Below, piece after piece: positions 26,018-52,966 of a stretch of DNA of 64,000 nt. The notes beneath the pieces are model-generated. The model saw only the letters and a list, made by a program, of their open reading frames with translations. It had not been told where the DNA came from and made no database searches. The first letter of the stretch is position 1. The number at the start of each line of letters is the position of its first letter. Made by a program: the position numbers and the translations under genes. Location of the stretch: positions 5,679-69,678 of the IMG/VR virus record IMGVR_UViG_2061766007_000941. The stretch is one strand, 5' to 3'. This DNA comes from a virus (Duplodnaviria; Caudoviricetes).

Positions 26018-26314
26018 ATGACTACATTAAAACTAAAGAGAGAATGGTGCTTAGTACTTGGCATCATGATCGGAGGAGCAGCTATGTTAGCTGGTGTGAG
26101 TCTAGGTAACTGGCTAGCTACTCAACGAGAGGAGGTGAATCGTGAGTACCACGAGCGTGTGGAAAAGTATGTGAGCTGCATTCGTGAGCAAGACGAAACA
26201 CGAGGATGGATAATTAGAAGCGAGTGTAGTTCTGATTGGAAGGAACTAGACCGTGAGTCTGGTTTAACTTACCACCAAGTTGGTAGGGATTTATATTTGA
26301 ACCACGAAAACTAA
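26018..26314 (+). CDS. Small membrane protein in the GC-richer patch
   Basis: GAGGAG RBS; N-terminal TM helix WCLVLGIMIGGAAMLAGVSLG. Confidence 0.55.
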   Translation: MTTLKLKREWCLVLGIMIGGAAMLAGVSLGNWLATQREEVNREYHERVEKYVSCIREQDETRGWIIRSECSSDWKELDRESGLTYHQVGRDLYLNHEN

Positions 26315-26423
26315 TACGACTATTAAGCGTGTGGACGGTTGTGTGTCGTGTCGTGTGTGTTGCGTGCGTGTGGTGTGCTAAGAACCTGGGAAAAAACGCC
26401 CCATTTCCCTGACACGAGTGTAA

Positions 26424-26663
26424 AGTACACAAGTGTGGACAAATGCGAAATTCAAAATCTGAATCAAGTGTATTAAACTTTTTATTCTTACTAATTTTTC
26501 TCAATTATTTTTGAATTTATTAAATGTCCACACTGAGTGGACAAGCTATAAAGCCCCATTCCACCTAGGTTTCTACTATAGTGTACAACAAAAACTACAA
26601 AATCTCTCCACACCTGTGGTCCACTAAGCACCCCCCATCCTTATTGGTCCACACCTATGGACA
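26424..26663. promoter_or_regulatory. Cluster of five TGTCCAC-N4(5)-GTGGACA-like palindromes
   Basis: 26424-26441, 26525-26543, 26570-26587, 26605-26622, 26646-26663. Confidence 0.7.
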
Positions 26664-26777
26664 AAATGGGAAAAATTTTCCCACTTTACCACCATAAAGT
26701 GTAAAGTAATGGGGACAATCCGCCCCACTAATAGGTTAAGTTACACCTACCAAAAGACAACTAGAAAGGAGAAAGGT

Positions 26778-26927
26778 ATGACAGAAACAGAATACATGGG
26801 TTATGTCTATCGTCTACATTTCTTAGAATCTCTTTTAGAACAACCCACCCTACCATCTCATTATACAAGAGAGTCTATAGAAAAAGAGATAAAAGAAATT
26901 AGACACAAATTAGGTAGAGATGAATAA
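26778..26927 (+). CDS. Hypothetical protein, first gene of the plus-strand operon (start MTETEY)
   Basis: GAAAGGAG RBS upstream of ATG 26778. Confidence 0.6.
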   Translation: MTETEYMGYVYRLHFLESLLEQPTLPSHYTRESIEKEIKEIRHKLGRDE

Positions 26928-27348
26928 GATCTACATTGATATGGATGGTACATTAACACCTTATGATTATGCAGATTATAAAGATGATAAGTGGAAACAC
27001 CATCCATCTATTTTATGTAAGCCACCTATCATTACAAATATTCCCCCAGACTTTGTGATACTAACATGTGTTGCAACAACAAGGGAAGCTATATTGAAAA
27101 AGAGCTGGGCTAAGCATTACTTCCCAAATAACCAATTTATTACTTGCTTCTCATCTAAGTATAAGGAAGTAAACCCTCAAGATTCCATACTGATAGATGA
27201 TTATAATAAGAATCTGGATGAATGGAAAGCTGCTGGTGGTATACCTATTAAGTTTCTTAATGGTATTAACTCACCTAGAAAAGATATGCTTTGTGTACGA
27301 GCAATAGAAGGTACACTAGAAAGATGTGATTTAAATGACAATTATTAA
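26920..27348 (+). CDS. HAD-family 5'(3')-deoxyribonucleotidase-like protein
   Basis: IYIDMDGTL motif I; ILIDDYxxN-x-xEW motif IV. Confidence 0.8.
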   Translation: MNKIYIDMDGTLTPYDYADYKDDKWKHHPSILCKPPIITNIPPDFVILTCVATTREAILKKSWAKHYFPNNQFITCFSSKYKEVNPQDSILIDDYNKNLDEWKAAGGIPIKFLNGINSPRKDMLCVRAIEGTLERCDLNDNY

Positions 27349-27473
27349 TATTTACAATAATAAAAGGAGAAAGACACCATTAATTATTTATCCTATAACT
27401 AATTTATTTTTCATGCCTATGGTGTTATCTCATTATTCAAAGAAATATCCTAAAGGAAGAATGGAGGTTACTC

Positions 27474-28667
27474 ATGCGTAAGTTATCTAAGAAACAAAAA
27501 CAATTTATAGAAAAGAAAGCTAAAGTTCAATCTTCTCTAACTGCTCAAGATAAACTCGAGCTTGAGAAGATGAATGATTATGAAACATTATATCAAGATG
27601 CTGATAGATATTTTGATGATATCAGAATCTCTTTAGTGTTTCATCGTGCATTAAATCCTATGCAAGCAAAGATTGGAAAGGAGTGGGATTAATGAAACAT
27701 ACTAGAATATTTATTGGAGTACTTTCTTTACTAGGAAGTATTGGTTGTTTTTATAATTTATTAACAGGCAATGGTGATGTTAGAATTGCTATTCTTTGTA
27801 TCGCTATTGCTACTGGTTTCTTATTAACTACTAGACAAGATAGAATACTTGACATGAAGTCTGATGCATTCTTACTTATTACTTTATCTAAATGTCTAGA
27901 TAGATTATCTGATGAACAACAAAAAGAAATAGCTGAAGAAGTTTCAGAAGAATTAAAGAAAGAAGGATTATTATAATGGCTATGGTTACTTATGATGATG
28001 AAGGTAATATGTATGTGGATGAAGTTTTTCCAGATGACCCTGTTAGAACTGTGTCTGATAATACATTACTGGATGAATCAACAACAATTATTATTAAAGG
28101 ACTCTTTGCATGTGCTGAAGAGTCTACATTAATAGATGATTATAAAAAGATTGCTATTAATGTGCATGATCACAATTGTGGTAGGATGATTTATACCTAT
28201 GTGCCTAAGAGAGCACTTAACTTTTTAGTTAAACACAATCCTTATACTTTTACTGCTCATTACTTTGAGCATCCTACTAGAGTTAAAACTTATACAACTG
28301 TGGTTACATCTATATTAGATATGAATGGTAATGAAATTTTATAGGAGGTATTAATATGAAAATTTTTAAATGTCCATTATGTCATGAAACATTAAATGAT
28401 ATTGGAGTAGTTTCTAAAGCTACTCATACATTCAACATTGAGTCTGCAGAATATTCTTCTATAGATAATATAGAGGAAACAATAGAATATTATTGTCCTG
28501 CATGTGGAGATACTTTACCTTTCTCCTTCACTGATGATTTTATTAAAGAGGTTGAAGAAGAGAAAAGGTATACTCCATCAGCCTTTGACTTAGAGGATTA
28601 TATCCCTAAGCATGCAGAGTATATTCCTAAACACATGAAGGAGGATAACGATGACAAGAATATGTAG
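27474..28667 (+). CDS. Four small hypothetical genes (27474-27692; membrane protein 27692-27976; 27976-28344; Zn-ribbon 28356-28667)
   Basis: Tiled ORFs with RBSs; two TM helices in the second; CPLC...CPAC in the fourth. Confidence 0.6.
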
Positions 28668-29097
28668 TGATTGTGGTTTAGAATTCTCTGGCAGAGCTAG
28701 TAATATATGTCAAAGATGTTATCAATATTATCGCAGACATCCCGAAGGTAAGTATCCTATACCTGAGGATGGTGTTATTACTTATGCTGACAATGGTGAT
28801 ATAGTCTGCCACGAATGTGGTAAGGCTTATCCTAAGTTAATACAACATGTTTATTATACACATCATATGTCACACAATGAATATTGTGATAAACATAAGT
28901 TTTTACATAACACTAAGTTCACAGCTGTGGATTATCAAGATAAGATGAGAACATATTCTACCCTTTATGCTGATAAAGTTATTAAAGATAACTTACTTAT
29001 TAAGGGGCAGTCGACTAGGTTTATACCTGGTCAAGATGTTTCAGGTCGAGGACATCATATTAAGAAAGGTGGTGATTTAAATGAGGATGAATCCTAA
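28651..29097 (+). CDS. Zinc-finger protein with MucR/Ros-like finger
   Basis: N-terminal CxxC..CxxC then IVCHECGKAYPKLIQHVYYTHHMSHNEY, resembling the MucR CxxCGKxFKxLxxHLxxxHGMTPEEY pattern. Confidence 0.55.
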   Translation: MTRICSDCGLEFSGRASNICQRCYQYYRRHPEGKYPIPEDGVITYADNGDIVCHECGKAYPKLIQHVYYTHHMSHNEYCDKHKFLHNTKFTAVDYQDKMRTYSTLYADKVIKDNLLIKGQSTRFIPGQDVSGRGHHIKKGGDLNEDES

Positions 29098-30304
29098 TAT
29101 CTTGAATGAAGGTAATTCTATGGAAGTCTTAGAATATAATGAAGACGAAATGAAAACTATCGTCAGATGTAACAACTGTGGAAAGCCTACACCTTATGGT
29201 TCTACTAGAATGTGTAGTGGTTTTGTAGGTTGTGACAATAAGATAATAGTTAATGGTAAAGAAGTTGAATGTTACTTTGGAGATTTATTACCTAGAGTAA
29301 TGGACTACAAAGAAAATAACTATGCCTTATATATGTCAGGCAAAGTTTATCGTTGGCGTGATAATGCTGACGGTGGTTTGAAAGGAGAATAAATAATGTT
29401 ACATATGTTTAATGTTCCAATGGCTACTAGAGTTAAGCACAAAGTTAAACACCAACATATTGGTGGTAAGAAAATTCTTATTGAAGGCTGGACTACTATA
29501 GGAGATATTATAGATTGTCCAGTGTCACAATTAAATATTGCACAAATTAATTTCATTCAAAGAAGAATTGATTTAATTGCAGATGACTTTTCTGATTCTG
29601 TAATTGTTTACTATGGTCATGTCAAAGGCTTAGGTTATCTCGTTGCTGAGGATGAGATTCGTTGCAATAAAATATTTAAAACTATTATTGAGAAAGGAGG
29701 TGAATAATATGTTTAAGATTCAACCATCAGCTCATGGATACATAGCTACATTAGAAAAGACTGGTGACAGATATTTCTGTGGTCATATTAAACCTACACA
29801 AGGTTATCCTAAGAAAGCTAAGTATCCTTATAAAGCTGATATTAGTTTAATGAAGATGGAACCAGATTCTACTGGTGTTAATCAAATGACATTCCATCGT
29901 TTAAGTAGAGGTAATGCTCAAGCTAGAGCTATTATCTCAGCAATAACTCCAGAGTTATGTGCTTATTTAGATAGAGAAGCTGCTATTGCTGCAGCTGTTA
30001 AACAAGAAGAGGAAGAAAAGTATACTCTTCTAGAACAAAATTTAGATGATATAATAGAAGGAGAATAATTATGAAAAAACATTTAAAAGAATTATCTAAT
30101 TTAAAGAAAGAACTTAATAGTTTAACTATTGATATTGATAGAATAAAATACTTTGAAAAGGATCCTTACATTTCTAAGAGTGCTAGTTGGATGGCTAGAC
30201 AAAACAGATTATCTTTAGAAGCTTTAAAAGCTGAGAAAGAAAAGAGATGCCAACAACTAGAATTCATTAAGAAATTAATAGACCTTTTAGATAAGGAGGC
30301 TTAG
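29081..30304 (+). CDS. Four hypothetical genes (29081-29392 Cys-containing; 29396-29707; 29709-30068; 30071-30304)
   Basis: Tiled ORFs with RBSs; the third most likely starts at ATG 29709 (AGAAAGGAGG RBS). Confidence 0.6.
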
Positions 30305-30305
30305 T

Positions 30306-30815
30306 ATGGATGGTACTAATTATATAGGTATTATAGTAGAGAAGTTATATGATGTTGACGATACAGGTTTTGGTAAATGTAGAATACTTCAAGGTGATAT
30401 TGTAATACCTATTAAGATGGATAAGTTTAATGCTGATATCTTTAATGCTGTAGGACGAAACACTTTTGCAATTGCTGCTGAGTTTTGTTCTGTGAATAAA
30501 AAGATTTTTATTAAAGCATTTAAAGTTACAGCTATTAGTAGTCTACTTATTTTAACTAATTACATTTCTTTTATAGGTACTCTAACACAGTTACCTAAGA
30601 ATGGAATTATTAAAGTAAAACTTATGAACAATTCTAATATAGAATTACCTATAAGAATTGATCATATACCTGATACCTCTCTTAAGTGTGTATCTTTAGA
30701 CACTGTTGTAGCTGTACAAGGTTCTTTTATTTCTGCTTATGTTACTAAAAATAATAAGACTTCTAAAGTTGTTAATATAAAAGCTGATAAAATAATGATT
30801 GGAGATTTTGAATAA
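30306..30815 (+). CDS. Tandem OB-fold / SSB-like protein
   Basis: Two similar beta-rich halves (YIGIIVEK / FIGTLTQLP ... VVAVQGSF ... VVNIKADKI) resembling SSB/PriB folds. Confidence 0.35.
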   Translation: MDGTNYIGIIVEKLYDVDDTGFGKCRILQGDIVIPIKMDKFNADIFNAVGRNTFAIAAEFCSVNKKIFIKAFKVTAISSLLILTNYISFIGTLTQLPKNGIIKVKLMNNSNIELPIRIDHIPDTSLKCVSLDTVVAVQGSFISAYVTKNNKTSKVVNIKADKIMIGDFE

Positions 30816-32014
30816 TGATACAGTTTATTTCTTATGATGATTTCATGTCTAAGTATGAAGATGAAATCTATGAGCGTTATTGCGATTTATATCCAGAAGA
30901 AATTAATTCTGACTGGACTTTAGAAGATGCTAATGATACTTCATTAGAAGACTTAGTGTCTATTATTTGGATGGAACATATAGCAGAAACATTAAAAGAA
31001 GAGATACCTAAAGACTTCTTGTCTTTATTGTATCCTGGTAGAGATTTTTAAAGGAGGTGATGTAATGGTATATGTAGAACCTAAAGATGCAGAATTTTAT
31101 TCTACTCTTATTAAGGATGGTTTAACTATCTATGAAAGTCAAGATGGTTTGACAGCTCATATTATTTATGATTGTCACACTTATGAACTTCAATTAGAAG
31201 AAGTAAGTGATGATAAATATATTTTATTATATATAAAGGAGGTGAAATAATATGTTTAATCTTTTAGTAGAGAATCGTAAGTTAAGAAAGAGATGTAATA
31301 CTCTTGAACTTAAACTCGAAACTCTTGAAGACACTATTAAAGATGAACTATATAAAGATTTCATGGCTAAGCTAGGAGAATCTGATATGGTTAGTCGTCT
31401 TAAAGAAGAAAATAAAAAGCTTCGTGAAGAACGAAAAGTTCTAAAGCGTATGCTTATGGAAGGAAAGGAGAATTAGTATGATAACTTTAGATAAGACTTG
31501 TCGTGATATCGTTGCTAAATATCTTTCTACTATTTCAACAGGTAAGATACTTAAGTTTCAATTCAAAGCAAAAGATATATCTAAAGTAGAGTATCACGAA
31601 AAACTTTTCAATCTTGTTGATGAGTTAATCTCAGGTGAGGATGGAGCCTCAGCTGTAGAAAAAGTTTTTGACATGCAAGATTACTTTGAATTTAATCCTA
31701 TGAGTCAATTAGATAAATTAAATTCACAAGAAGCTTCATGTATTATTGAACCCTTAATATTAAAGAGAATAGATGCTGAAGGTAATGTACATTATATATG
31801 TGATTCTCTTTATAAACAAGGTGATATTGTGATTAAGAAGTTACCTTTTAATCCTGTATCATTAGAGAGGTTGTATGTATTGATGTCAGATCATCATTAT
31901 TATACAGCCGGTGCTAATATAGGTAACAATAACATATTATGTTTTGGCATAAATCAAGAAGCTGTTATAGCTTATAGAAAAAATTTAATTAAAAGTATAG
32001 AAGGAGGCCGTTAA
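30815..32014 (+). CDS. Four hypothetical genes (30815-31051; 31065-31250; 31252-31476 coiled coil; 31478-32014)
   Basis: Tiled ORFs with AAGGAGG RBSs. Confidence 0.6.
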
Positions 32015-39675: not shown

Positions 39676-40032
39676 ATGATTACTAAAGGAAAATTCTTAG
39701 AGTTACTAAAGTCTTTAGACCCAGACCCTAATTTTCATACAGCTATTATTCAAGAATGTTTTAAGAAACTTCCTGATGCTGTTGCTTGGAAATTATCCAG
39801 ACAATTATATCTAGAATATTTTTGGGATGGTGACAAATATAGGATGAAAAATAATATCACCGGTGAAGAATTATTGTTTAGTTCTTATACAGAAGCTGTA
39901 CAATACTTAACTAAGTTAGGTTATAAAGCTACTAACACTGGTGTTGCTAATGCATTTAGAAGTCGTTCTAAAGATTATTGTAACCATACATTTTATAATG
40001 ATAAAGAAAAAGAGATTACTTATTTTGAGTAA
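39676..40032 (+). CDS. Protein with C-terminal NUMOD1-like HTH; own extended -10 (TGaTATAAT, ~39648-39656)
   Basis: FSSYTEAVQYLxxxGY...GVANA pattern; AAGGAG RBS. Confidence 0.45.
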   Translation: MITKGKFLELLKSLDPDPNFHTAIIQECFKKLPDAVAWKLSRQLYLEYFWDGDKYRMKNNITGEELLFSSYTEAVQYLTKLGYKATNTGVANAFRSRSKDYCNHTFYNDKEKEITYFE

Positions 40033-41554
40033 TCCCTTTTCTTATCAAACTATTTAATCTTAAATAACTGCATGCTATTGAGCTTGCATTTTTTAATGCT
40101 TCATCAATAGATTTATAACTATCTAATATACCTTCATCATAAAGGTTTACTATTTTATTATTTCTTACATCCACACCGGTTCTTTTATTTATAAGATATT
40201 TTCGTCCGGGGATATTTTTTATACCTGCATTATTTAATATTTGTTTCATTGGTAATCTTAATAATTTTCTAATAGAAATGTTATTCATTTTTAAACTTAT
40301 GTTATATAAAGTTTTGCCCCCACCTAGAACAACTCCGTTCTCGAGTGCCATTCTGACAGCTCCGATCGCATCATCTAATTTTAAATGTAGAGTTTTGAAT
40401 TCTGTTACTGTAGGAACTCCTACTTTAATTTTAACTACCCCATTCTCTAAAGCTCCAAGTCTTTTAGTATATAAAGCTTCATCTACTCCACTTAATTTAT
40501 ACTTCTTATCCAGCTTCTTTTTATATTGTTTGATTCTTTCTGGTACAAGTTTATTCTTTTCACAGATAAATAAGCTTCTGTCGATCTCAATTACCACATG
40601 ATCAGCATGACCACAGTATTCATACTTATAATCTCCAACGCCATTGCTGGCATCTTGAACTACTCCATTAGTTACTGCAGCTAAATCCATGTACACATCA
40701 TCCATCTTAGTTTCATTAACGAATATGAATTGATACTTGAAGTTATTCTTGATTAATGTATCAATCAAAAGTCTTAATGTATTAGGATTGAATGCTGGAT
40801 TCAATACAAACACAAATGGATTCTTGATTTTATCTTCAGGTATACTCTTGAAGAATTCACCTAATCCTACTTGAGTCATAACTCCTTCTTTTAATAATAC
40901 TATGTTACAGTTATCAGCTTCCCACTTCTCACCGTCATCACATAGAGCTGCCATTGCATCACTCATGTAACCACTATCTATTGAGAATCCCTTAGTTTGT
41001 TCTACTTTAACTCCAGATCCTTCACGATCATGTTCAATAACAATGTTCATTCCAGCTCCACATTTCTTGTAAGCTTCTTCTACAATCTCACCAACCATAG
41101 GAATCTTAGTACTAATAGTTGCAATACTTTTAACATGTTTAGGTTCCATCTTGAACTTTTCCATTTTAAGTTTCTCTCTAACCATTGCAACTTCATGCTC
41201 TATTTGATCAGCTACTAATTGTGGATGTTTACCACGCTTGATCATTTTATATCCGTGATCATATAATGCATTAGTTAACAGAATAGTTAATGTTGTACCA
41301 TCTAATGCTTCTTTTTCTGTAGTCGCAGCTGCTTCGATCATATCTACTGCGATCATCTTTTCCATTCCATCTAGATGAATCGCTTGACGAGCTACAGTTA
41401 CACCATCATCTGTTAGTGTACACTTACCAAAGTCATCATCTAATGCAACCAATAATCCTTTAGCTCCCATTGTAGGAACTACCATATCATTTATCTTTTG
41501 GAATGTTTCCTTGATCAGACTTTGTGCCTGATTCTTTTTCTTTATCTCTAACAT
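40016..41554 (-). CDS. groEL: Chaperonin GroEL (Cpn60)
   Basis: TMGAKG, TDDGVTVA, LDGTT, VKIKVG, KLDDAIGA, GVVLGGG; no C-terminal GGM tail. Confidence 0.92.
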   Translation of the reverse strand: MLEIKKKNQAQSLIKETFQKINDMVVPTMGAKGLLVALDDDFGKCTLTDDGVTVARQAIHLDGMEKMIAVDMIEAAATTEKEALDGTTLTILLTNALYDHGYKMIKRGKHPQLVADQIEHEVAMVREKLKMEKFKMEPKHVKSIATISTKIPMVGEIVEEAYKKCGAGMNIVIEHDREGSGVKVEQTKGFSIDSGYMSDAMAALCDDGEKWEADNCNIVLLKEGVMTQVGLGEFFKSIPEDKIKNPFVFVLNPAFNPNTLRLLIDTLIKNNFKYQFIFVNETKMDDVYMDLAAVTNGVVQDASNGVGDYKYEYCGHADHVVIEIDRSLFICEKNKLVPERIKQYKKKLDKKYKLSGVDEALYTKRLGALENGVVKIKVGVPTVTEFKTLHLKLDDAIGAVRMALENGVVLGGGKTLYNISLKMNNISIRKLLRLPMKQILNNAGIKNIPGRKYLINKRTGVDVRNNKIVNLYDEGILDSYKSIDEALKNASSIACSYLRLNSLIRKGITQNK

Positions 41555-43257: not shown

Positions 43258-43510
43258 AAGCTAGTACATCTGCCATGTCTACAATTAAGTAGTTAGTACC
43301 CTTGTAACTTAAAGGTAATGCAGCATACAATGGGAAGTATACTACATCGTTTTCACTTATGTCATATAGTTCATAATTTTTAACAATTACTTTACCTTTT
43401 ATGACATCTTTGCGTGACTGAGTTTCATTAGTAATGCTAAGTCCATTACCTAGCTCAGTTTGTGTGTCCATTTGTTGGACTAAGATCTTGTTCTTATTTA
43501 CTTTGATCAT
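43235..43510 (-). CDS. groES: Co-chaperonin GroES
   Basis: 91 aa; NKILVQ, mobile-loop-like TELGNGLSIT, KGKVI, NDVVYF, YLIVDMADVLA. Confidence 0.8.
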   Translation of the reverse strand: MIKVNKNKILVQQMDTQTELGNGLSITNETQSRKDVIKGKVIVKNYELYDISENDVVYFPLYAALPLSYKGTNYLIVDMADVLAYDSEDFS

Positions 43511-43531
43511 TTATTCTTACCTCCTATATTA

Positions 43532-43560
43532 AGTATAACATTGTCCACTATAAAATACAA
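43532..43560 (-). promoter_or_regulatory. SigmaA promoter for groES operon with embedded palindrome half-site
   Basis: TTGTAT-17-TATACT (TGt extended); TGTCCACTATA at 43542-43552. Confidence 0.7.
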
Positions 43561-43561
43561 T

Positions 43562-43625
43562 AAAAAAGGACCAATTTCTTGGCCCATTTATAGAAAGGAG
43601 GCGAATAGCATTAAACAGTTCACCT
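43562..43625 (-). ncRNA. Putative ~64-nt sRNA with anti-Shine-Dalgarno sequence (sRNA-2)
   Basis: TTGACA(43661-43656)-18-TATAAT(43637-43632); terminator GGGCCAA-GAAA-TTGGTCC-T6 (43562-43585); no ORF; carries CCUCCUUUCU. Confidence 0.65.
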
Positions 43626-43657
43626 ATATTTATTATACTATTCAGTTAATTAATGTG

Positions 43658-45034
43658 TCAACCTTTATAGTTATCTCTCTTTTTTTGGTTTCCTTCTGAG
43701 TCTGTCCAGTATTCATTCTTATTATAAACTAATCTAGGACTTCCTTCTTTATCTATAATGTAGAAGTTACCATTGTATTTGTACATATCAGTGCCTTCAG
43801 ATACAGGATGTCTTGTAACTTTACCTTTATCATCCTTTGTTTCATAGAAATCTCCTGAAGTAGAAGTTCTCTTTTCACCTTTCTCTGTAATAGTTGTTCC
43901 AGATATCCAGTTTTGTTGTGCTATTGTAGCATCTAATTGTTTCTCTGCAACTCTTACACTAGCCCATGCAGCTCCCGCAGCACTTCTAGCTATCTTATTA
44001 GCTTGATCTTGAAGCTCTTCATTAACTTTGTTGTTACGAACAGTTTCATCATAAGTTAATTTACTTAGAGTTTCAATACCATAGTATCTAGTTACTGTAT
44101 TTCCGTTCTCATCTTTGACATCCCAATGTTCAAATCCTTTTGAGTCATAGTATGCTTGAGCAGCAGCATTAACTCCACGAGCTCTAGCCTTTTCAGCATC
44201 TGTTGAATATGGGTTATCAAGAATATCCTTAGCAATCTTTTGTTGCTTCATCATTTCACTAGCTTCAGGTGGTACATAGCATCCAGTTTCATTAGCTTCC
44301 TTAACAGCTAGGTCAACTGCATCCTGGTAGTATTGTAATGCTAAAGCTTTTTGATCAGCTTCTGCATACATCCTAGCTATACCAAGCTTAGTATCAACAC
44401 CATACTTTTGCATCTCAGCTTGAGTATACATGTTGGCAGCTGTTTCTGCTTGTAAGAATTCTACTTGTAAATCACTGGCTGTCTTTTGTCCACCTTCCCA
44501 ACCCATCTTATCTTGGGTTTGTCTGGCACTATATTCACTAGCAAAGTAATTATTGAATGCACTGCTTGCAGCTTTATCAACTTCTTGCTTAGCTTGAATA
44601 GATTCATATCTAGCTTGGCTAGCTTCTTGATCATATTTAGTTTGTGCCATTTCGGCAGCTATCTTATTCCAAGTATAGTCTTCATTTTCAGTAGCTTTAT
44701 ATTGGTCACCCATACCATACTCAGATTCAAAGGCACCTTTTAATTCTGCATTATTACTAAGAGTTGTACTAGTTTTAATAGTAGTATCATAATCTTTTTG
44801 TGCAGAACTATTATAATTAAATGTTTGTTTAGCATCTGCTTGTGACATTGCATTACTTGCGATCTCACTTGCATGATCCTTTTCTCCTATAGGTTGAGTA
44901 GGTTTGCTTGCATTAGCATACATACTCTTATCAGGAGAAGTAACTTGATTTAATACTTCAGGTGCTGGTTCAACATCTGGTTGGTTTGGTCCATCAGCTA
45001 TTGGTTGATTATTTAGTACATCTGAATCTTCCAT
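43658..45034 (-). CDS. Putative internal virion (ejection) protein A
   Basis: Ala/Gln-rich helical 458 aa; shares a segment with the neighbouring gene. Confidence 0.45.
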   Translation of the reverse strand: MEDSDVLNNQPIADGPNQPDVEPAPEVLNQVTSPDKSMYANASKPTQPIGEKDHASEIASNAMSQADAKQTFNYNSSAQKDYDTTIKTSTTLSNNAELKGAFESEYGMGDQYKATENEDYTWNKIAAEMAQTKYDQEASQARYESIQAKQEVDKAASSAFNNYFASEYSARQTQDKMGWEGGQKTASDLQVEFLQAETAANMYTQAEMQKYGVDTKLGIARMYAEADQKALALQYYQDAVDLAVKEANETGCYVPPEASEMMKQQKIAKDILDNPYSTDAEKARARGVNAAAQAYYDSKGFEHWDVKDENGNTVTRYYGIETLSKLTYDETVRNNKVNEELQDQANKIARSAAGAAWASVRVAEKQLDATIAQQNWISGTTITEKGEKRTSTSGDFYETKDDKGKVTRHPVSEGTDMYKYNGNFYIIDKEGSPRLVYNKNEYWTDSEGNQKKRDNYKG

Positions 45035-48406: not shown

Positions 48407-48447
48407 ATTATACCATAGTAGATAAATCTCTTCAATAATGGTATAAT
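48407..48447. promoter_or_regulatory. Overlapping divergent sigmaA promoters
   Basis: Minus: TTGAAG(48435-48430)-17-TATAAT(48412-48407). Plus: TAGATA-17-TATAAT(48442-48447). Both have TGg extension and form a 10-bp inverted repeat. Confidence 0.7.
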
Positions 48448-48458
48448 GTAGGCAGGAG

Positions 48459-49106
48459 ATGATGAGTATGCAAAGAACATTTGCACCAGACATCATCACA
48501 ACTAAAGAGAACCTATTAACTGCACTTCGTAATGGAGATATTAAGACATCTAAATATAATCTATTGAACGAAGAGGAAAAGTTATTCGTTGAATTAGTTG
48601 TGTTTGGTGATTATAATGCTGAACAAGCAATGATGTCTATAAGAGGTAATGATTATCATAAAGGTATGGGTAACAGAATCTGTGCTAGACCTAATGTAGC
48701 AGATGCCTTAGAAGAATTATCTTATAAAAAGAATAAGAAATTTATGGCTGAGGTTACATCATCTAGAGATGCAGCACTTCGTAAGCTTATGTATATAATG
48801 AATACTACAGAGGATGAAAGTGTAGCTGCTGCCTGTGCCAAAACTATATTAGATAAAGCTGATAAGATCACTACAGAGAAAGAAGCTGCTGATGCAGTTA
48901 ATGCTATTCAATTTAATATTAATCTAGCTCCTCAACCTGTTGATGTTAATAATCCTAAGGTTGATCTTGATGCTCCAATCATTTATGATGTGCAAGATTA
49001 TGATGAAAAGGTTTCTACAATGCTCCCTAAGAAGGAGGAACCTAATGCATCTGGTTTAGATTTTAAATTAAACTATTCTGCTGTTGATAATTACTCAGAC
49101 AATTAG
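48459..49106 (+). CDS. Terminase small subunit-like protein
   Basis: LNEEEKLFVELVVFGDYNAEQAM...GNRICARPNVADALEEL resembles the TerS HTH (LTxKQxxFVxEY...NAxQA...GxRLLxxPxV). Confidence 0.65.
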   Translation: MMSMQRTFAPDIITTKENLLTALRNGDIKTSKYNLLNEEEKLFVELVVFGDYNAEQAMMSIRGNDYHKGMGNRICARPNVADALEELSYKKNKKFMAEVTSSRDAALRKLMYIMNTTEDESVAAACAKTILDKADKITTEKEAADAVNAIQFNINLAPQPVDVNNPKVDLDAPIIYDVQDYDEKVSTMLPKKEEPNASGLDFKLNYSAVDNYSDN

Positions 49107-49112
49107 TATAAT
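49084..49112 (+). promoter_or_regulatory. SigmaA promoter for sRNA-3
   Basis: TTGATA-17-TATAAT overlapping the TerS stop. Confidence 0.7.
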
Positions 49113-52099: not shown

Positions 52100-52966
52100 C
52101 TACTTCTCTCCTTCTTCTTTTACTTCATTACTCATCTTCGCATTAGCTACTGCTAATAAAGTTCTATTTACATCACTAGCAACAGCCATAGTTGCATTAA
52201 AATTTTCTAATAACTTATGGTAGTCTTCTGATAAAGGGTCAGCCTTTTCAACAGCTTCTACTATAGGTTTTACTTTTGTATCTAAAACTTCAGCTAGTTT
52301 TTTTAAATCTTCTATCATACTATTTACCTCCCTTCACTGTAGTTTTCTTTTTTCTACCAGGAGTTTTCTTAGCTGTAGTTTTCTTTTCAGCTTTTTCTTT
52401 ATTTACTCCCATAATTTTATCTAACTCTTCTTGTTTAGTCTTTTTATCTTTATCACTAGTAGCTAAGTCACTTAAATCAATAAGGATTTCTACTAGAGTC
52501 TTGTCATCAGAACATACCATTTTCTTTAGGTAGTCTAAATCTTTGTCTTGGATATAATTCTTTCTATACATATCCTTTAATGTGCTTGTAATGAATCCCA
52601 TTACTTCTGCAGTGGAACCCTTTACTATTTCTTTGTGTCTAAATAGACCATTTTTAACTATTATTTTCATATAATCTCCTCATAATATATTTTATATCCA
52701 TATGCTGATCTACCTTTACCTTTAAGGCATTTGTACATGTAGCTTCTGTCACATACAATATTTTTTCTTTGATAGAAGTATTCAATTAAATTCTTCATAT
52801 CTAGAAATTTAAGAACTTTTCCTATGTCATGATCTTCTAATACTATCATCTTTTTATCATGTGCAATAGCCCAGGCTCTATCAACTTCCTTAAGTTTGTA
52901 TCTATCAGGAAGGTTATTGAATGCCTCCCTGAACGCTACAACTAGATCTTCATCACTACTTTTCAT
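52100..52966 (-). CDS. Three hypothetical genes (52100-52318; 52320-52670; 52667-52966 with NUMOD1-like C-terminus)
   Basis: Tiled ORFs; RSYMYKCLKGKGRSAYGY in the third. Confidence 0.55.

Follow-up and report, generated by a model that had tools for sequence, protein, structure and literature searches.

Does the gap between two genes of an uncultured rumen phage encode a small RNA that represses translation by pairing with ribosome-binding sites (RBSs) elsewhere in the genome? The question is raised by a 147-nucleotide (nt) interval in a 64-kb window (the whole stretch of DNA analyzed, part of the 69.7-kb virus record IMGVR_UViG_2061766007_000941), where a candidate RNA unit sits between an open reading frame (ORF) of 458 amino acids (aa) and a GroES-like co-chaperonin gene. 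The first-pass annotation had proposed here a second trans-acting translational repressor, carrying an anti-Shine-Dalgarno (anti-SD) sequence, that may shut off several early genes. Our analysis assigns a probability of roughly 40% to a discrete, lineage-specific RNA that pairs in trans with RBSs; that such an RNA is made, is stable and represses any gene is what we infer from the features described below.

The promoter-to-terminator unit and its predicted fold

The unit is made up of the following elements.

43632-43661, minus strand: P1, a perfect sigma-A/sigma-70-type promoter TTGACA-18-TATAAT (TTGACA at 43661-43656, TATAAT at 43637-43632)
43562-43625, minus strand: predicted RNA of about 64 nt, with a putative start 7 nt past the -10 hexamer and a putative end in the U-tract
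43599-43625, minus strand: 5'-terminal hairpin AGGUGAA/UUCGCCU, 7 bp, -9.0 kcal/mol
43592-43607, minus strand: anti-SD stretch UAUUCGCCUCCUUUCU, which contains a copy of the 16S tail
43588-43611, minus strand: possible 7-codon micro-ORF MLFASFL with stop codon UAA and AGGUGA 8 nt upstream of its AUG
43562-43585, minus strand: intrinsic terminator GGGCCAA-GAAA-UUGGUCC followed by U6, -10.4 kcal/mol

Promoter P1 matches the consensus at 12/12 positions with an 18-nt spacer and, as the first-pass annotation reported, overlaps the end of the upstream gene: the TGA that terminates the 458-aa ORF (43660-43658) falls within the -35 hexamer TTGACA. Perfect promoters of the form TTGACA-N16-19-TATAAT occur only twice in the window against 0.26 expected (two were reached in 3 of 100 shuffles), and the second heads a different non-coding RNA, sRNA-1. 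Seven promoter matches scoring at least 11/12 were found in the 69.7-kb genome, four of them intergenic, while intergenic DNA makes up 14.6%; this enrichment suggests that the consensus is in use by the phage. The stretch of about 64 nt and its terminator with a GAAA loop are also present as first described. With its own 12/12 promoter and an intrinsic terminator bracketing it 64 nt apart, the unit has the appearance of a discrete RNA gene that runs from promoter to terminator; since the 7-codon ORF lies inside, "non-coding" is not to be taken as absolute.

The folding energy of the predicted RNA (~43625-43562, 64 nt) is -19.8 kcal/mol (z = -3.4), and none of 200 shuffles did as well. The predicted fold consists, in order, of the 5' 7-bp hairpin, single-stranded CCUUUCUAUAAAU and the terminator hairpin. 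The 5' hairpin, which necessarily holds the SD-like AGGUGA, hides the 5' part of the anti-SD, while most bases of CCUUUCUAU have a predicted probability of ~0.9 or higher of being unpaired; read together, the hairpin's 3' arm and the exposed strand give UAUUCGCCUCCUUUCUA, an extended anti-SD. Within it, CCUCCUUUCUA (43601-43591) matches the final 11 nt of 16S rRNA of the Bacillus type at 11/11 positions. A search for the host 16S tail in the linked Acholeplasmatales metagenome-assembled genome (MAG) returned none. The Bacillus-type 3' tail is GAUCACCUCCUUUCUA (PMC5427494). The copy is completed by an 8-nt extension, CCUUUCUA, which lies outside the hairpin and is predicted to be unpaired; this favors a trans-acting or sponge-type RNA, as a leader hairpin has no need of CCUUUCUA. 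In the transcribed sense CCUCC occurs only four times in 69.7 kb, and the occurrence in the candidate RNA is the only intergenic one.

Under the proposed mechanism, the consensus host-type P1 would drive a ~64-nt RNA ending at a terminator that already serves the upstream operon. The exposed seed CCUUUCU would pair with the purine-rich AGAAAGG of strong RBSs, pairing would then extend into the hairpin arm, and the resulting RNA-mRNA duplex would exclude the 30S subunit from the mRNA. The best phage target would be gene 29709 (16 bp, up to 2 nt before the AUG), followed by genes 52318, 47496 and 31065.

Predicted targets

Three start regions bear on the choice of target.

29691-29711, plus strand: SD through start codon of gene 29709-30068, whose 119-aa product belongs to no known family; the best predicted trans target
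52316-52337, minus strand: start region of the 72-aa gene 52100-52318, the second-best predicted target (duplex -25.4 kcal/mol; cofold -18.9 kcal/mol, the best)
31235-31254, plus strand: start region of gene 31252, with a 12-nt match to AAAGGAGGUGAA (31235-31246), duplex -20.5 kcal/mol

The pairing at the center of the original proposal is present: UAUUCGCCUCCUUUCU (43607-43592) pairs with AGAAAGGAGGUGAAUA (29691-29706) over 16 nt with one G-U, and the 10-mer AGAAAGGAGG occurs in the window only at the candidate RNA (as its complement) and at the 29709 site, against 0.08 expected. Each of the 74 called start regions was scored against the core of the RNA (43612-43586) by duplex energy and by cofold energy, the latter charging for the opening of both RNAs. 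In the duplex ranking gene 29709 came first of the 74 (-26.4 kcal/mol), followed by 52318 (-25.4), 47496 (-23.6) and 31065 (-23.1 kcal/mol); in the cofold ranking 52318 was first (-18.9) and 29709 second (-16.6 kcal/mol). A scan of both strands of the 69.7-kb genome returned the 29709 site as the top match after the self-antisense site. These ranks agree with the expectation, set out beforehand, that 29709 would be among the top targets. Its AGAAAGG is, moreover, predicted to be unpaired in the mRNA (probability ~0.7-0.8). The ~12-nt pairing with the RBS before gene 31252, named earlier as a further target, is a real match, but it takes only about rank 11 and its cofold is weak (-8.4 kcal/mol); the stronger candidates 52318, 47496 and 31065 had been missed.

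The best duplex energy of -26.4 kcal/mol was reached by 2% of the shuffles that kept CCUCC and by 5% of those that kept CCUCCUUUCUA, and, averaged across the 74 start regions, the pairing energy lay in the top 1-3% of shuffles. The flanks of the core still add to pairing beyond the anti-SD itself, and the RNA resembles the complement of an idealized start region of this phage.

Gene 29709 is rare (4 clusters among 5.8 billion proteins; its homologs P0124, P0131 and P0132 are encoded on ~70-kb contigs), and no homologs of it were found in the related phage G001, in G002 (the L013 MAG) or in IMG/VR. This rarity would fit a young regulator-target pair; it fits equally well the turnover of the accessory genes at 26-31 kb, most of which are lacking in G001. 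Duplication of the 29709 start region was considered as a source of the match and rejected: the alignment ends with the 16-mer, its score is 28 against 19.4 +/- 2.7 for shuffled sequences (maximum 31), and the flanks score below the shuffle mean. Among the small genes at 26018-31051 on the plus strand almost none have homologs in G001, in contrast to the structural genes and GroEL, which are 80-90% identical to those of that phage; judged by this gene content, the block is a fast-turnover accessory region.

The locus in related phages

The genes and the second promoter that surround the unit are as follows.

43658-45034, minus strand: 458-aa ORF with no assigned function, TGA stop at 43660-43658
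43532-43560, minus strand: P2, extended -10 promoter (TGnTATACT, weak -35 TTGTAT, GTGGACA in the spacer) of the GroES-like gene, kept in L001, L013 and L023
43235-43510, minus strand: GroES-like co-chaperonin gene (Cpn10), whose start region AGGAGGUAAGAAUA is able to pair with the anti-SD in read-through transcripts
40016-41554, minus strand: GroEL

Relative loci, which come from rumen-type metagenomes (one of them lies within a yak-rumen Acholeplasmatales MAG), were located via the 458-aa protein and via GroEL. At 79% aa identity, G001/L001/L002 carry the stop codon, the terminator hairpin, TTGTCT-17-TGnTATAAT with GTGGACA in the spacer, the SD and GroES; the order of elements is the same in L013 (54% aa identity) and in L023 (37% aa identity), the latter with an extra small gene ahead of GroES. 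L003-L005 differ in synteny, and no such RNA was found there. On this comparison, P2 with its extended -10 and the terminator are the ancestral features of the locus. In the relatives the terminator, kept in position, ends the upstream operon. Its strength is also similar (-10.4 kcal/mol in the window, -10.3, -9.7 and -8.8 kcal/mol in the relatives), and the idea that the terminator of the window phage is the stronger one was rejected.

By the same alignment the ~70-nt promoter/hairpin/anti-SD module is unique to the window phage among the relatives examined, and the conservation in relatives that the first-pass annotation had proposed to check is lacking in G001/L001, L013 and L023. No further copy of the module was found in the window phage genome or in G001. 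The unit had no match in the phage GenBank collection, in near or distant search mode, and an exact 22-mer of it was not found in IMG/VR. One homolog (P0126) of the 458-aa protein is identical to it over aa 1 to ~340 and then switches to a P0002-type tail, which places the module at a recombination joint; in P0004, P0006 and P0007 the tail is like that of the window protein. The family of the 458-aa protein is large, with 170 hits on ~70-kb contigs, and the C-terminal ~100 aa of the protein are hypervariable and mosaic, which suggests a swappable module, perhaps for binding.

Other features of this neighborhood were also noted. A P2-type extended -10 promoter (TGnTATAAT) is kept across four lineages (the window, L001:5276-5305, L013:4170-4195 and L023:2352-2385). 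The GTGGACA in the P2 spacer of the window and of L001 is one half of the palindrome TGTCCAC-N4-GTGGACA, of which only this half-site is clear. In G001, L001:7040-8250 is an ORF-free, repeat-rich segment of ~1.2 kb between the GroES-side small genes and GroEL, with TATGGTGCTAATTAA four times, TTAGTTAGTAGCATA three times, GAAGAGGTGTTnnACC three times and an 86-nt pair that is 94% identical; it matched neither a tRNA nor an Rfam family, and its equivalent in the window carries ORFs (a transglycosylase and others).

Alternative explanations and known systems

Several observations weigh against a trans-acting RNA. The ~70 extra nt of the window (P1, hairpin and anti-SD) have no counterpart in G001/L001, L013 or L023, scans of G001 and of the L013 contig for sense-strand CCTCC returned no comparable anti-SD unit, and a single sequence of the module is known. 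Covariance-model searches of 43560-43661 (E up to 10) gave no match to a curated Rfam family, C4 included. A -9 kcal/mol hairpin takes up half of the anti-SD. With AGGUGA 6 nt past the -10 hexamer and an AUG 8 nt further on, the unit has the layout of real genes of this phage (e.g., TATAAT-TTACAT-AGGTGA-TACT-ATG at 48407), and on the plus strand the sequence comes close to a consensus start region. Target specificity is affected as well: no SD of the genome pairs more strongly with a generic 16S tail than the 29709 site (-23.0 kcal/mol), and the energies of the candidate RNA and of the 16S tail correlate across start regions (r = 0.67), because the CCUCCUUUCUA of the RNA is identical to the end of 16S rRNA. 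The top rank of 29709 is therefore partly trivial, and much of the apparent specificity probably reflects SD strength. The first-pass annotation had cautioned that any anti-SD matches many RBSs, with the flanks carrying the specificity; here the complementarity beats 95-98% of shuffles, and specificity appears limited. Even if the RNA acts in trans, strict specificity for 29709 is doubtful. As to the proposed repressor as a whole, the discrete unit, the exposed C/U stretch and the top rank of 29709 speak for it, while SD strength confounds the ranking, the relatives examined lack the module, and its action on "early genes" was an assumption.

The same elements could instead act in cis or on the ribosome pool at large. 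As the leader of the GroES/GroEL operon, P1 would be a second, strong chaperonin promoter and the 64-nt segment an attenuator: either ribosomes translating the micro-ORF would stop 3 nt ahead of the terminator stem and prevent its formation, or the anti-SD of read-through transcripts would pair with the RBS of GroES and silence it. Indeed, the UAA of the micro-ORF lies 3 nt before the stem, where a terminating ribosome would cover the 5' arm of the terminator; in the minimum-energy fold of the read-through RNA UAUUCGCCUCCU is paired with AGGAGGU-AA-GAAUA of GroES; and P2 of the window (TTGTAT / TATACT) is weaker than that of the relatives (TTGTCT / TATAAT). The arrangement also resembles erm/cat-type leaders and RNA thermometers, with a short ORF whose own SD is part-hidden in a hairpin, ahead of a terminator and a chaperonin gene. 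However, the leader contains no antiterminator partner for GGGCCAA, its minimum-energy and centroid folds being two independent hairpins only. Since P2, the promoter of the downstream gene itself, is conserved and lies after the terminator, P1 is not needed for expression of the GroES operon; nor is there a family match. Pairing in cis is confined to the minimum-energy structure, which has an ensemble frequency of 0.014 (z = -2.0), the anti-SD/GroES duplex is weak (-14.5 kcal/mol), and the CCUUUCUA extension is unexplained by a leader. Any hairpin on an anti-SD automatically yields an SD-like arm, and an AUG at usable spacing would arise by chance in roughly 10% of cases (our estimate from base composition). 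A leader function seems rather unlikely. A variant of the trans-acting reading is that the RNA is a global mimic of the 16S rRNA 3' tail, which would retune translation initiation rather than repress one gene, its free anti-SD titrating strong or extended SD sites of host and phage mRNAs or acting as a decoy for a factor that recognizes the 16S tail. It draws on the 11/11-nt identity to the Bacillus-type tail, on the mean pairing over 74 start regions in the top 1-3% of shuffles and on the full consensus strength of P1; yet the phage genes themselves depend on the same SD type, which would make a general sponge harmful to the phage, and the RNA would have to compete with a large excess of ribosomes. 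In addition, the tail compared is of the Bacillus type, the linked MAG yielded no 16S tail, and no precedent was met in the literature searched; we regard such a mimic as very improbable.

A further frame comes into play when the opposite strand is considered.

43592-43699, plus strand: AGAAAGGAGG, 8 nt, then ATT as the putative start of a hydrophobic frame of 29 codons, which lies on the strand opposite the 3' end of the 458-aa gene

Here the plus strand would be the meaningful one, as the start region, live or a relic of recombination, of this small hydrophobic ORF; in the live version the minus-strand RNA would be a cis-antisense repressor. In type I toxin-antitoxin systems a small hydrophobic ORF is likewise faced by a strong promoter on the antisense strand, and the candidate shares with ibs/sib and fst/RNAII a small RNA under a strong promoter whose sequence is perfectly complementary to the start region of a hydrophobic frame of ~30 codons (29 residues here). 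Moreover, 73/77 GGAGG sites of the genome lie in the sense of local genes, many as recognizable RBSs, the 8-nt spacing to ATT is inside the usual 6-9 nt range, and the region is a recombination joint, as the tail switch of P0126 indicates. Against this, the start would be ATT, with no ATG, GTG or TTG at usable spacing, the sole plus-strand promoter candidate (9/12) is at background level, and the frame, for which no Pfam match was found, overlaps the 3' end of a gene of structural size. Hydrophobic frames are in any case expected antisense to A-rich coding DNA, the likeness to the 29709 start region stops at the 16-mer with no sign of duplication, and the relic version leaves a perfect P1 unexplained; a plus-strand start region is unlikely. 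Finally, the stretch may have no function, being a recently recombined, divergent 3' untranslated region with a chance promoter and a chance SD-complementary run, any RNA from it being noise. Such an explanation is in line with the absence of the module from all relatives examined, with the hypervariable, mosaic C-terminus encoded by the 458-aa gene and with the AT-rich genome, where promoter-like hexamers are common (18 found against 11.3 expected at 9/12). The joint occurrence is nevertheless improbable: a promoter expected 0.26 times per window, a 10-mer expected 0.08 times and flanks in the top 2-5% of shuffles stand within 100 nt, in the right order and with the terminator next to them, a rarity that makes chance an unlikely explanation.

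In the minus strand, the micro-ORF and a 26-codon frame (43587-43507) lie in one frame over 43507-43611, split only by the UAA. At its end the 26-codon frame has an ATGA that overlaps the start of GroES, an arrangement probably due to chance in AT-rich DNA.

For the RBS-pairing RNA acting in trans, known systems offer partial likenesses. The sar RNA of phage P22, like c4 of phages P1 and P7, is a phage small RNA that blocks translation at a ribosome-binding region. In c4, exposed bases pair with the ribosome-binding region of a phage mRNA, and translation is blocked (PMC12197685). The candidate RNA would likewise occlude an RBS through exposed pyrimidines, but c4 and sar act on the neighboring ant operon in the immunity region, whereas the best target of the candidate is 14 kb off and on the other strand. 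In the case of c4, the RNA arises by processing of a longer transcript and is kept in related phages, which the candidate module is not, and neither c4 nor sar shows sequence or Rfam similarity to it. In Bacillota, C-rich small RNAs of the RsaE/RoxS type use unpaired C-rich motifs to pair with the G-rich SDs of several mRNAs without long specific flanks. These RNAs are chromosomal, widely conserved and carry several CCC/UCCC motifs in loops, whereas the candidate has a single linear CCUCCUUUCU run copying the 16S tail and no Rfam hit. With the 16S tail itself it shares CCUCCUUUCUA and the same mRNA partner sequences (PMC5427494); it differs in lying outside the ribosome, in having UAUUCG instead of GGAUCA upstream and in that a hairpin takes up part of it. 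The literature searched contained no description of a phage RNA as an anti-SD or a copy of the 16S tail. Taken together, the candidate is a plausible lineage-specific, RBS-pairing regulator of a known functional kind, proposed from a single sequence and with limited target specificity.

The genome that would host such a regulator has a GC content of 32% in the window, strong RBSs of the AGGAGG type and a giant ORF of 5,251 aa. Throughout the window many promoters share one layout, a -10 hexamer, ~6 nt and then the SD (e.g., 48407, 54381, 61918 and 7776 on the minus strand, 39656 and 48447 on the plus strand); given this fixed layout, the 5' untranslated regions of most phage mRNAs would be only ~15-20 nt long. 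Both putative small RNAs, the candidate and sRNA-1, have AGGU at the same distance as a start and a 7-bp 5' hairpin first, and paralogy between them was rejected as not significant (63/500 shuffles were equally good). An 11/12 promoter (TTGATA-17-TATAAT, 49083-49112, plus strand) stands right behind the plus-strand gene 48468-49106 and faces the sRNA-1 locus of the opposite strand, where an antisense transcript is possible.

If the reading of a trans-acting RNA is not true, the locus shows how any anti-SD run "finds" the strongest RBS of a genome. If it is true, this virulent-looking rumen phage would possess a second RBS-acting small RNA beside sRNA-1, and would provide a compact case of a phage using a copy of the ribosomal anti-SD for translation control. 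Since the module is absent from relatives, a regulatory RNA would then have arisen very recently at a recombination joint.

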